Of a stretch of 64,000 nucleotides of DNA, positions 237 through 6,904 are shown one piece after another. Below the pieces are notes generated by a model, which was given only the letters and a program-made list of their open reading frames with translations, had not been told where the DNA came from and made no database searches. The stretch lies in the NCBI GenBank assembly GCA_963722075.1, contig CAVRJM010000001.1, positions 32,001 through 96,000 of the forward strand. Direction: 5' to 3'. The position numbers were made by a program, and so were the translations under genes. Source of the stretch: Candidatus Babeliales bacterium. Lineage in GTDB: Bacteria > Babelota > Babeliae > Babelales > JANWKD01. Each line of letters opens with the position of its first letter. Position 1 is the stretch's first letter.

Positions 237-581
237 TTAAGCATCACCCTTCAATTTTTTCACTAACGATTTAAGAACATCCTTTTCTTCTTTCGTTAAA
301 TTTTCTTGTTTATTTTTTGCAAATATCCATAGCAAATAGATATGATTTTGATTAACTAAAAAATAATAGCAAACTCTAAACCCGCCACTTTTACCTCGAG
401 AGGCTGATTTTAATCTTACTTTGCGTACTCCACCAGCACCGACAATAATATTACCCAAATCAGGGGATGATGTAAGCGCTGTCTTAAAATCAGTGTAATC
501 TTCAGATAAGAGGCTTCCTTTTTTAAGAAGGCCTTCGATTTCTTTTGTAAATGCTTTAGTTTCTATTATTTTTATTATCAT
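237..581 (-). CDS. higB: RelE/HigB-family toxin
   Basis: PDLGNIIVGAGGVRKVR...RGKSGGFRVCYY...IYLLWIFAKNKQENL motifs; toxin-first order. Confidence 0.88.
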   Translation of the reverse strand: MIIKIIETKAFTKEIEGLLKKGSLLSEDYTDFKTALTSSPDLGNIIVGAGGVRKVRLKSASRGKSGGFRVCYYFLVNQNHIYLLWIFAKNKQENLTKEEKDVLKSLVKKLKGDA

Positions 582-3311: not shown

Positions 3312-3356
3312 GCTCCACAATTCCAATTTACGTTAATGAGGATTATTTATATTTAA

Positions 3357-3454
3357 TGGATCCCCATCCGTCTACGTTAAAACTACGCCGGACAGGCACG
3401 CTATTGACGGAATCCGGCGAAGCCTTCGGCGAAGTCGGACGCGCTCGGGATGAC
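3357..3454. repeat. Right arm of a palindromic element with a nested inverted pair of REP-like units
   Basis: tggatcccca...ctcgggatgac as at 32182-32208, interrupted by tccgtctacgttaaaactacgccgga and tccggcgaagccttcggcgaagtcgga. Confidence 0.65.
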
Positions 3455-3471
3455 GGTAGTGTACACCACCG

Positions 3472-4440
3472 TCACTTTAAAATTATAATAAGCAGTGCAA
3501 TAAGTAAAGCGTACATTGCTGCAGCATCTATAATTCCTTGTCCTAAAATACTGGTACGGGAAAGTATAGAATGTTGCTCAGGATGTACGGCAATTTCACG
3601 ACAGGCAGCACCTGCAATAAGACCGGAGCTTATGCCAGGGCCTAAAGTACCCAGTGCTCCGCAGATAGCCGCTGCTAGACAAGAAACGGCACCAAAAAAT
3701 TCATTAGGTGCTTTAATTGGTGTTAATAAGAGTACGATTGAAATAAGGACCGCAAATATAATAGGCGTTTCAATAATTGCTTGGCTGATAAAGGTAAACG
3801 GCATAATGATTTTATAAGCATCTTTATTATACGCAATACTTTCTTGACAAATACGGGCAAAACGCGCGAGTCCAAAGGTGGGTCCTATAGCGCCAAAACC
3901 AATACAAATACCACTGGCAAGTAACCTAATACCATTAGCAAGAGTAGTAACTGATCCTAATTGAGCTTTAATAAAAAGCGCTATTAAAAAACTAAAAATT
4001 ACCGGTGTTTGCACTATTGATTGGGTTATGAGTAAGGCATTTAAAATTTTAGTAGCAAAAAAAGGTTGCCGTGCAAGTGCAAAGGCTGCTTGTTGAGCGG
4101 GCAACGATGATAAAATGCCAACCAGAGCTCCGGAAATGCCCAATGCAAGAGCGATTCCCCATTCTCCAATTGCTACATAGAGTTGCTGTTCTGGTTGTAC
4201 GATTGTTGGCCCCAGTATAAGAAACAGTGCCATGACGATACCTAAAATAGCACTTGTTTCAACTAATGCCAGGCTTATGATAAGTGCTCTAAAAATAGAA
4301 GGGTAACTGAGTGGGGCAATATTAAGTGCACGTACCGCTTGCATACTGGCGTTACCGCCGCCAATACCAATCCCAAGCGAAGTGAGTCCAACAATAAAAG
4401 CAATACTACTATAATGCAATAATGGGTGTAAATCGATCAT
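3472..4440 (-). CDS. atpE: ATP synthase F0 subunit c, four fused hairpins
   Basis: Four Gly-rich helix / loop (e.g. ARQP) / helix units with ET, QT, ET, DA at the ion-binding position; downstream of atpB. Confidence 0.88.
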   Translation of the reverse strand: MIDLHPLLHYSSIAFIVGLTSLGIGIGGGNASMQAVRALNIAPLSYPSIFRALIISLALVETSAILGIVMALFLILGPTIVQPEQQLYVAIGEWGIALALGISGALVGILSSLPAQQAAFALARQPFFATKILNALLITQSIVQTPVIFSFLIALFIKAQLGSVTTLANGIRLLASGICIGFGAIGPTFGLARFARICQESIAYNKDAYKIIMPFTFISQAIIETPIIFAVLISIVLLLTPIKAPNEFFGAVSCLAAAICGALGTLGPGISSGLIAGAACREIAVHPEQHSILSRTSILGQGIIDAAAMYALLIALLIIILK

Positions 4441-5180
4441 TCAAGCCCTCCTTCTTCTGGTGATTGAACTGCAATGGAAAGATAGGTAACCGTTAACATA
4501 GTAAAAACAAATGCTTGAATGAGACCTTCAAAGATAACAAAAAAAGATATAACTAAAAAATTGATACCACTAAAAAGCCCTGCCAGTTGAGTAAATGGAG
4601 AAATAGAAAGTGCATTCATATAAATATTGGTAATAATTGCGCCACCAAAAATATTGCCAAAAAGACGGAAAGAAATTGAAATGATTTTTGAAAAATGGCT
4701 TATTACATTGAGCGGGAACATAATAAAAATTGGATGCAAAAATTCTTGGAGATATGCCTTAAAGCCGTGAATTTTTATGGTATAAAATTCTTTATAAAAA
4801 AAGGAAATGATACCTAAAGCTAATGCAGTATTTATATTTATTGTAGGTTCTTCTATAAAGGGGAGTAATGAAATCCAATTACATAATAAAATGAAGGTGA
4901 AAATTGAGAATACAAATGCAAAATGATGATAGTTAAAGGTACCTAATGATTGGGTAATAAGATCAATAAAAAAAATGATAAATGATTGCGCAACGTAATT
5001 AACAACACTATTTTTATGAATTAAAAACCGGCATATCATTATGAGAACTATTAATACTAATAGTGTGATCCATGTATAGATAATGGTATCGATATTTATT
5101 TGAAGAAAATCAGAATGGAAACCAAAGCGTTCAAAAGGGTTCCAAGCATATTCTGTGCTAAAAAGTTCTAAGCCTTCCAT
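4437..5180 (-). CDS. atpB: ATP synthase F0 subunit a
   Basis: SISFRLFGNIFGG, FEGLIQAFVFTML motifs. Confidence 0.95.
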   Translation of the reverse strand: MEGLELFSTEYAWNPFERFGFHSDFLQINIDTIIYTWITLLVLIVLIMICRFLIHKNSVVNYVAQSFIIFFIDLITQSLGTFNYHHFAFVFSIFTFILLCNWISLLPFIEEPTININTALALGIISFFYKEFYTIKIHGFKAYLQEFLHPIFIMFPLNVISHFSKIISISFRLFGNIFGGAIITNIYMNALSISPFTQLAGLFSGINFLVISFFVIFEGLIQAFVFTMLTVTYLSIAVQSPEEGGLE

Positions 5181-5455
5181 AGCTTTGTATCGCTCTTAAT
5201 TAGAATAGTTATCCATAAGGCTATAAAAAATGATAATAGAATTAGTATATAATTAAGAGACTGATAGCGCAATAGATAAAAAAAAATGAGTGATATACTA
5301 CATACTCTGAGAACCGTATGAGTAAAAACAGCGGTAAAAATAGAAGTTGAAGAAGGTAAAAAGGCATTCCTTTTTGTTCTAAAAAAGGAATGCCCGTATA
5401 GTATACCTATTGTTGATCCAATTATACTAGATGTAATGAGCCAGAATAAGCTCAT
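5168..5455 (-). CDS. ATP synthase protein I-like small membrane protein
   Basis: 95 aa, about 3 TM segments, immediately upstream of atpB. Confidence 0.55.
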   Translation of the reverse strand: MSLFWLITSSIIGSTIGILYGHSFFRTKRNAFLPSSTSIFTAVFTHTVLRVCSISLIFFYLLRYQSLNYILILLSFFIALWITILIKSDTKLWKA

Positions 5456-5464
5456 AGTAATACC

Positions 5465-6904
5465 TTAGCGAGTTGAATCGATTTTTTTAATGCCTTTATG
5501 TTTCCAATATGAAGCAATGATTGATTGTGAACCAGAAATAACCACCAATCCATGGCGTTCATCAACCGATTTTTTAGCGATATCAAATGCTTCTTCAAAG
5601 TTTTTAACTGATTTTGCTTTTATTTTTAAATTTTTTACGTCATTGGTAATCTGCTCTACATCCCATGAGAGTTCGGCAATACCTGGGATTGGAGATTCAA
5701 TAGGACAGAAGATAATTTGACCTGAGTTTTTCTTAGAGAAGTAACGTAATAATCGTAAAAACTCCTCATTGTTCATGTGATTTTTGTCGCAGGCAAAAAT
5801 AAGCGCAAGTCCTTTTAAAGGACGTTGGTAGTGCATTAATCGAATACCTAATAATAGATTTTTTAATGCATCAACGTTACTTGCATTATCAAGAAGAACG
5901 GTTGGTTTTTCTTTATCAAGAATTTGGAAGCGACCTGGTAAGGTGCTTGATTCTTCTTTCCAAAATTGTTCCAGAGTTTTTTGTGGATTTTCTAATGATT
6001 CTTTCTTACGTTGTAAGGTAGGACGGCCACGTTGTCCTTTTGGTTTAGAAAGTAAGCTGTTACTTAAAATGATAGTGCTATCTTTTAAGAATGAATCTAC
6101 ATAGATTTGGCAAATACGTTCAGCTAATGCAGCAGAACGACCAAACATTTGCTCAAAAGGATACGCTAATGGTGCAAGTTTACGAATAGGCATTTCCCAA
6201 ATACCTTTATGAAGCTCAACCTGATCAGCCATTAATTGAAGGTTTAATTTACTTTGATCGCCAGAAATAACATGCATACTTGGTTTAACGCTTGAAAGAA
6301 TATATTTTATATAATCAATGGTTTTTTCATTCTTTGGCGTAATATCTTCATTGGTGATTCGGGTAATTGCAAATACTTTTGGTTGGCATACATTTACCGG
6401 ATCAAATGGGCTATTGTCTTTCATTTCTAATAAGGCAACATCAACATTATTTTGATCAAAATAAAGGATCCCCATCATCGTTAAAATATCAAATGAGGTG
6501 ACTGGTATTTCGTGAGTTTCTGCAACATTGATTACTTCGTTGGCAAGCTCAGTGAACGTTTTATTTGAAATAATTTCATTATTAATAACAAATCGTTCGT
6601 TATAACTTAATAAATGAGGAGAATAAAAAGAACCAACAGTAATTTTTTCTGCTTGGAATAGTTTTGATGCAAAATGGATGGTTAATCCTTTTCCGTTGGT
6701 ACCACCGATTGCAATAGCATTAATTTTTTTTGATGGACTTTTAAGTGCTTGGTCTAATTTATTTATATAAGCAAATGTTTTTGCTGAAGGCTGTTCGTGG
6801 CTCCAATGAGCATCTAAAAAATCTATTATTTCGTTATAATTTTTTTGCTTACCTAACGCGGTAGCAGCTTTTACACTCGTTTCGCGTTTATTTACAATTG
6901 CCAT
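5465..6904 (-). CDS. folC: Divergent FolC/Mur-ligase-family protein (folylpolyglutamate synthase-like)
   Basis: GGTNGKG P-loop, YSPHLLSYNERF, LPGRFQ, LLDNASN, VISGS motifs. Confidence 0.7.
   Translation of the reverse strand: MAIVNKRETSVKAATALGKQKNYNEIIDFLDAHWSHEQPSAKTFAYINKLDQALKSPSKKINAIAIGGTNGKGLTIHFASKLFQAEKITVGSFYSPHLLSYNERFVINNEIISNKTFTELANEVINVAETHEIPVTSFDILTMMGILYFDQNNVDVALLEMKDNSPFDPVNVCQPKVFAITRITNEDITPKNEKTIDYIKYILSSVKPSMHVISGDQSKLNLQLMADQVELHKGIWEMPIRKLAPLAYPFEQMFGRSAALAERICQIYVDSFLKDSTIILSNSLLSKPKGQRGRPTLQRKKESLENPQKTLEQFWKEESSTLPGRFQILDKEKPTVLLDNASNVDALKNLLLGIRLMHYQRPLKGLALIFACDKNHMNNEEFLRLLRYFSKKNSGQIIFCPIESPIPGIAELSWDVEQITNDVKNLKIKAKSVKNFEEAFDIAKKSVDERHGLVVISGSQSIIASYWKHKGIKKIDSTR

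Follow-up and report, generated by a model that had tools for sequence, protein, structure and literature searches.

A four-hairpin F-type c subunit in Babelota and the case for a hybrid ATP synthase rotor

The c ring of an ATP synthase sets the number of ions moved per ATP. Hybrid F-type rotors, which contain a two-hairpin c subunit, are known from a few acetogens. In Acetobacterium woodii and Clostridium aceticum the genes are arranged in the order atpI-B-E1-E2 (PMC7911925), and for A. woodii a ring ratio of 9:1 with an assembly that needs AtpI (PMC8904574) as well as ATP synthesis by the hybrid enzyme from ~90 mV (PMC9171764) have been described. Archaeal forms of subunit c may have 1, 2, 3 or 13 hairpins (PMC9171764). 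In solved Na+ rings the ion is held by Gln/Glu32 and Glu65 of one subunit and by Val63, Ser66, and Tyr70 of its neighbor (PMC3692424). For the phylum Babelota (Dependentiae), ATP hydrolysis by the ATP synthase has already been proposed, with protons assumed as the ion and subunit c unmentioned in the relevant passages of these papers (PMC4776705, PMC6561590). The full-text literature searched yielded no description of an F-type c subunit with more than two hairpins or of a Babelota rotor, and no paper on multi-hairpin c genes of Desulfobacterota; PMC2702500 and PMC12172432 contained nothing on a four-hairpin c subunit or a Babelota rotor, and the genome survey of hybrid rotors by Brandt and Mueller (2015), or supplements of other papers, could mention some of the genes.

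The four-hairpin gene and its genomic context

The window (the whole stretch of 64,000 nucleotides that was analyzed) contains, as a single open reading frame on the minus strand, a gene for a c subunit of 322 amino acids, here named atpE4. It is preceded by a candidate atpI and by atpB, in this order:

3472..4440, minus strand: atpE4 (P0001), four-hairpin F-type c subunit, 322 aa; assigned by open reading frame, Pfam, AlphaFold2, and Foldseek
4207..4428, minus strand: hairpin 1, residues ~5-78; E61 present, G28 at the usual position of the Na+ ligand Gln/Glu, Tyr at +5 absent
3961..4179, minus strand: hairpin 2, residues ~88-160; acid replaced by Q144, R-Q-P loop at 124-126
3718..3942, minus strand: hairpin 3, residues ~167-241; E224, partner face on hairpin 2 is Pro and Phe, not Thr and Tyr
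3475..3699, minus strand: hairpin 4, residues ~248-322; D305, Q301, Y310, the repeat most similar to the single c subunit (37%)
4437..5180, minus strand: atpB, subunit a; essential Arg present (SFRLFGN), 4-nt overlap between its stop and the start of atpE4
5168..5455, minus strand: likely atpI, 95 aa, hydrophobic; assigned from position and size

Four stretches of the atpE4 protein matched PF00137 in the Pfam search, and its AlphaFold2 model (119 homologs in the alignment) consists of four helical hairpins with a mean pLDDT of 96.3, which bears out the four diverged c hairpins recognized in an earlier, sequence-only reading of this DNA. The carboxylate position is occupied by E61, Q144, E224, and D305, which lie in the motifs LVETS, IVQTP, IIETP, and IIDAA, respectively; the loss of one acid out of four, also part of that reading, was confirmed with Q144 in hairpin 2. 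Pairwise identity is 22-32% among the repeats and 23-37% between them and a single-hairpin c subunit of the same genome. For each of 10 hairpin pairs, 0/300 shuffles matched the observed score; composition was preserved in the shuffles, although scores of this kind are inflated by hydrophobic helices. The c1 subunit of A. woodii (4bem_J) was both the closest solved chain by sequence (E-value 2e-10) and the top Foldseek match of the model (E-value 7e-5, rmsd 2.2 Å, 161 columns), matches of the model to V/A-type proteolipids had E-values of 0.002-0.1, and a search of the ESM Atlas returned c-subunit clusters only. Among the hairpins of atpE4 the near-invariant R-Q-P loop is confined to hairpin 2, and Q301 and Y310 of hairpin 4 were invariant in 120/120 close homologs. 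Assignment to the V/A-type proteolipids (subunit K/c) was rejected (NF011483, 37 bits at a cut-off of 188), as was assignment to the N-ATPase (alternate F1F0), which is a single operon without delta: a delta-like gene is present here, the genes are distributed over four loci, and the scores were 82.8 bits for TIGR03322 (cut-off 130.85) and 91.2 bits for TIGR03306 (cut-off 302.1).

The candidate atpI received no Pfam or NCBIfam call, and phmmer detected a homolog upstream of atpB in 30/60 loci. The four-hairpin gene is encoded together with atpB and away from the remaining atp genes in 58/60 loci. In all 57 measurable Babelota loci it starts at most 28 nt from the atpB stop, which it overlaps in 37 of them (3/60 were unmeasurable); for this statistic the start codon nearest to atpB was chosen, which favors small gaps. 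The single c gene has its own leader and did not overlap with the upstream gene in any of the 53 loci (of 60) where an upstream gene was found. Subunit a is present in one copy, and the coupling of atpE4 to its gene points to a single fused subunit in each enzyme; the four-hairpin subunit is likely made 1:1 with subunit a.

Directly upstream of the candidate atpI, here and in many relatives, is a gene for a FolC-like Mur-ligase protein (window 5465-6904, minus strand), which scored 147 bits and thus below the FolC cut-off of 163. The product of an ORF of 114 aa (window 237-581, minus strand) resembles a RelE/HigB-type toxin. Directly past the atpE4 stop lies a GC-rich palindromic repeat of ~105 nt (window 3350-3455) that folds at -36.7 kcal/mol and had 33 blastn matches across the genome, with ~20 long copies at 78-94% identity; it resembles REP or MITE elements.

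The second c gene and the distribution of both

The source genome (1.47 Mb, 99% complete) was searched as a whole for c hairpins, and five were identified: the four of atpE4 and one in a single c subunit of 81 aa (G000:C1:855137-855379), whose gene is the first of atpE-F'-F-H-A. The sequence-only reading had restricted the ring to 8 or 12 hairpins, i.e., 6 or 9 sites, unless a canonical atpE elsewhere forms it; this gene is such an atpE, which at the gene level largely overturns the restriction, since with it nothing limits the ring to these numbers. The single c subunit carries the Na+-type motif P-x3-Q...E-S-S..Y, and among its counterparts in 60 relatives the Gln was present in 52, the Glu in 60, Ser or Thr at +1 in 54, and the Tyr in 49, with Leu or Met at the Gln position in 8/60.

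With atpG and atpD-C at two further loci, the atp genes are split over four loci. The F-type set found comprises a, b, delta, alpha, gamma, beta, and epsilon (b' and b were named by position and shape alone), and b, delta, and the F1 genes are located outside the atpI-B-E4 locus, as the sequence-only reading had expected for b and F1. As there is one atpA, one atpD, and one atpG in the genome, and one subunit-a gene was seen, both c genes would serve one F1. V/A-type catalytic subunits were not detected in this genome; the three PF00006 matches were atpA, atpD, and an ORF that we take to be Rho-like. The two b-like genes between the single atpE and atpH (L009:7406-8243; G000:C1:855405-856242) encode 119 and 162 aa, and the first of them is apparently not long enough for a normal peripheral stalk.

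Across the phylum, the four-hairpin gene was identified in 254/261 Babelota genomes, including all 189 good ones. The number of c-hairpin matches per genome never exceeded five and was exactly five in 215/261 (counted by hand). The single-c query matched 256/261 genomes, a tally in which hairpin 4 of the fused gene may be counted (e.g., G110); matches in frames of at most 136 aa made up the best 150 among the matches listed, plus 30/30 in divergent genomes. A true absence of the single c gene from four genomes was considered and rejected in favor of assembly gaps: a contig of G110 ends 916 bp from the start of atpA, and atpA itself is missing as well from G141, G145, and G113. By these counts the single-hairpin gene accompanies the four-hairpin gene nearly everywhere checked. 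The two c genes were never in each other's flanks (0/80 and 0/60 Babelota loci, 1.5 kb flanks). A two-gene rotor design is apparently common to the whole phylum.

The acid pattern is less uniform. Among 120 close homologs it was EQED in 97, EQEE in 16, and other in 7; among 60 genomes (the 30 closest and 30 picked as divergent) EQED in 29, EEEE in 15, and other in 16; and among twenty further genes EQED in 13, EMED in 4, and EEEE in 3. In quick trees, whether built from the fused protein or from subunit a, Babelota fall into two clades, one mostly EQED and the other mostly EEEE, which were sisters with a support of 90-96 (25/60 Babelota rows and 9 outgroup rows). E/Q/E/D is thus no phylum-wide pattern and, as judged from these trees, is a trait of one of two Babelota clades. 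Gln would be ancestral at hairpin 2 only if the hairpin 2 of the outgroup is orthologous. A joint Gln-to-Leu change in the single c subunit and hairpin 1 (G155, G142, G126, G128) could be traced to one or two events in related genomes, was mismatched in five genomes, and was not used.

A profile search beyond Babelota retrieved proteins with three to five c hairpins, and a second search added 117 new proteins with five to six, whose source, if it named a taxon, gave Deltaproteobacteria or Desulfobacterota with one exception. Record titles among the homologs included Desulfatibacillum alkenivorans, Desulfosarcina variabilis, and Dethiosulfatarculus sandiegensis. In 80 named Desulfobacterota-type genome loci the fused gene had four (61), five (17), or six hairpins (2); atpB preceded it in 79/80 and a single c gene followed directly in 77/80, and in two of the three exceptions to this atpB-cN-c1 order the sequence ends right after the fused gene. 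The order matches that of the acetogens, which in Babelota is interrupted between the two c genes. Acid patterns were EQQQ, EQQE, EQQQQ, and EQQQE. The Desulfobacterota proteins share with those of Babelota the position of the gene after atpB, a Glu in the first and a Tyr in the last hairpin, and a hairpin 2 with S(-33), P(-30), RQP, and QTP..F, a motif set absent from the single c subunit. They differ in that the single c gene is adjacent to the fused gene, whereas in Babelota it is in another operon, in that their internal acids are tied to a Tyr (27/28), and in that additional c loci occur in their genomes. When the four hairpins of both groups were matched in register, the identity order won 633/2000 bootstraps, and 319/2000 without the ion-site columns, so that a common origin rests mainly on the hairpin-2 motifs and gene order. 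Five Desulfobacterota genomes (G261-G265) had the fused-c locus and one to three other single-c loci; three of them had only one atpG, so that one F1 may use two membrane parts.

The same searches retrieved other multi-hairpin proteins. P0206 (968 aa, cluster of 12) is an F-type-like c with 13 hairpins, all with Glu and Tyr, in which Trp at glycine positions suggests a TGA=Gly code, presumably Gracilibacteria-like; it is a candidate single-chain bacterial rotor. P0255 (1139 aa), named Promethearchaeota/Hodarchaeota by NCBI, has 15 hairpins with Glu throughout and is an Asgard candidate for a single-chain rotor that would exceed the known 13-hairpin form in length. P0311 and P0212 are F-type c proteins of six and five hairpins, respectively, that retain Glu and Tyr in every hairpin.

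Ion sites, coupling ion and direction of pumping

In Desulfobacterota, a Tyr at +5 of hairpin i coincided with an acid in hairpin i+1 in 27/28 cases and was absent without an acid in 231/232 (counts from related, not independent, proteins), and the opposite pairing direction gave no such match; this fixes the direction in which hairpin faces form sites. Babelota depart from this rule: none of their internal acids has a Tyr partner (0/131 and 0/235), and the partner faces of hairpins 3 and 4 mostly carry Pro at +2. Inner-helix glycines are lost in hairpin 2 of the four-hairpin proteins. The acid of the first hairpin and the Tyr of the last are kept in 119/119 and 55/59 Babelota and 79/80 Desulfobacterota proteins. 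With no Tyr for the internal acids and outer faces canonical in type, Q144 would be dead, E224 and D305 non-canonical, and the two ends built to pair with neighbors. The sites at E224 and D305 are predicted to be either H+-capable or silent, and the sequence-only count of three working sites out of four is thus unsafe. Comparison with Na+ c subunits, as that reading had proposed, gave a divided answer: the Na+ motif is present in the single c subunit, and G28 (a position with Gln or Glu in 44/60 relatives) and A306 leave each outer junction of atpE4 one Na+ ligand short.

Concerning direction, the C-terminal helices of epsilon inhibit hydrolysis, and epsilon is here 79 aa long and lacks them; its open frames measured 79-123 aa in 116/121 genomes and ended after the beta-sandwich in the 30/30 relatives read. 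No match to PF00361, PF03116, or PF00115, and no member of the complex I/Mrp, Nqr/Rnf, or heme-copper oxidase families, was found in the 99%-complete genome, which does encode ATP/ADP translocases. The truncated epsilon, the respiratory pumps not found, and the translocases make ATP-driven pumping likely. It had been proposed before from the lost site, as befitting an energy parasite, and of that argument the conclusion probably stands and the basis falls: acid losses are more numerous in Desulfobacterota homologs (EQQQ, EQQQQ), and the hybrid enzyme of A. woodii synthesizes ATP (PMC9171764), so that site loss is no mark of parasitism.

The genome encodes an NhaC-family antiporter, an Na+ symporter, and a membrane pyrophosphatase (L247, G000:C1:917947-919866) with the Ala of K+-dependent enzymes and a Glu at the Na+-PPase position, which precedes that of the H+ pump by one turn. 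By the criteria given in PMC9408878 this is an Na+-pump signature; the literature names the enzyme of this phylum a proton pump. Because of the Na+ signatures in the single c subunit and the pyrophosphatase, and the Na+-linked transporters, Na+ is the more likely coupling ion. The junction gaps at G28 and A306 and the Leu or Met replacing Gln in some single c subunits suggest that some lineages may use H+ instead. Three large polytopic membrane proteins had no Pfam match at 1e-5: L256 (780 aa), L262 (1127 aa), and L250 (398 aa).

Rotor architecture and comparison with known systems

We favor, with a probability of roughly 0.7, an Acetobacterium-type hybrid ring of one four-hairpin subunit and several single c subunits in an ATP-driven, probably Na+, pump. 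One copy of the four-hairpin protein would take its place in the F-type rotor among several one-hairpin subunits, and its outer faces would complete normal sites with the adjoining single c, E61 at one end and Y310, serving the Glu of the next subunit, at the other. Assuming 11 hairpins as in A. woodii, the ring would consist of 1 + 7 subunits with eight canonical sites, up to 10 in all, and move 2.7-3.3 ions per ATP; powered by ATP imported from the host, it would build up the membrane potential. The presence of the fused and the separate one-hairpin c gene alongside one complete F-type set is consistent with such a ring, and by analogy the atpB-cN-c1 order of Desulfobacterota supports it. 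The distance between the two c genes, unlike the arrangement in Acetobacterium, argues against it, and a ring built from four-hairpin copies alone would suit the outer faces as well.

A bolder version of the hybrid ring is offered tentatively and is, taken whole, doubtful: a phylum-wide F-type motor with an asymmetric sector, in which the single-copy subunit would dock the stalk via its RQP loop and the Tyr-less, H+-type E224 and D305 would lie amid Na+ sites, so that one ATP-driven turn might export both ions at a fixed ratio, the EQED and EEEE clades being gear variants in a series of two to six hairpins.

It is improbable that the four-hairpin protein sits in the ring chiefly as a structural seed or a docking point for gamma/epsilon, with ion counting incidental and internal acids carrying nothing. 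The R-x-P loop is the usual F1-contact motif, and it occurs in hairpin 2 of 60/60 four-hairpin proteins and as RQP in 0/60 single c subunits. The lost glycines of hairpin 2, the missing Tyr partners, the constant length of four hairpins under varying acid patterns (EQED, EEEE, EMED, EQGE), and the joint encoding with the likely assembly factor atpI fit this role as well. E224, however, is kept in 120/120 close and 55/60 diverse homologs, a costly conservation for an unused buried acid, and this proposal overlaps with the hybrid ring, from which it differs in purpose only.

Two interchangeable rings, one of two or three four-hairpin copies and one of single c only, swapped across infection stages to change the ion/ATP gear, seem similarly improbable. 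Genes in separate operons could be regulated apart, the end faces E61 and Y310 complement each other, and the three Desulfobacterota genomes with two or more c loci and one atpG suggest exchangeable membrane parts there. Yet the only subunit-a gene seen is coupled to the four-hairpin gene, the fused gene of Desulfobacterota has its own adjacent single c in 77/80 loci, homo-rings of EQQQ or EQQQQ subunits would keep one site per four or five, and c1 of A. woodii occurs once per ring (PMC9171764, PMC8904574).

A rotor of single c only, with the four-hairpin protein outside the ring as a leak, chaperone, or stator-side partner of subunit a, would accord with the isolation of the gene with atpB, its strong divergence from single c (23-37%), and a speculation on passive proton channels in a relative (PMC6561590), but is very improbable given that the predicted fold is a ring arc matching 4bem_J with both outer ion-site faces kept, that the F1Fo enzyme itself needs the sole subunit a seen, and that the nearest solved relative is a ring component.

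A four-hairpin version is fixed across a phylum of ATP-importing parasites in two natural site patterns, and versions with four to six hairpins exist in sulfate reducers, some of them cultured. With this series one can ask what number of blank positions a rotor is able to pass and whether ring size or stalk position is determined by the fused subunit; the series also bears on whether duplication or site loss came first toward V-type rotors. The V/A-type proteolipids (Enterococcus NtpK, eukaryotic c/c'/c'', and archaeal c with 2, 3, or 13 hairpins) likewise have fused hairpins and lost sites, whereas the atpE4 protein scores best on F-type models and its genome yielded no V/A-type catalytic subunit.

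The closest known system is the hybrid rotor of A. woodii and C. aceticum (4BEM chain J; c1:c2/3 = 1:9). Its c1 is the top match in sequence and fold, is made of fused F-type hairpins encoded right after atpB, and has Glu in the first and Gln in the second hairpin, with Gln at -4 and Tyr at +5 in the last hairpin and no such Tyr in the first; in these features atpE4 agrees with it, and both systems have a one-hairpin c carrying the Na+ motif that is encoded separately. Acetobacterium c1, however, has two hairpins and one acid, the protein described here four hairpins and three acids, of which those in hairpins 3 and 4 lack a Tyr partner. The c genes adjoin in one operon there and in 0/80 and 0/60 Babelota loci, so that the Babelota system departs from two defining features of that rotor, the two-hairpin, one-acid subunit and the adjacent c genes. 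The A. woodii enzyme makes ATP, whereas a truncated epsilon in an ATP-importing parasite, and a sister clade that is mostly EEEE, set the Babelota enzyme apart.
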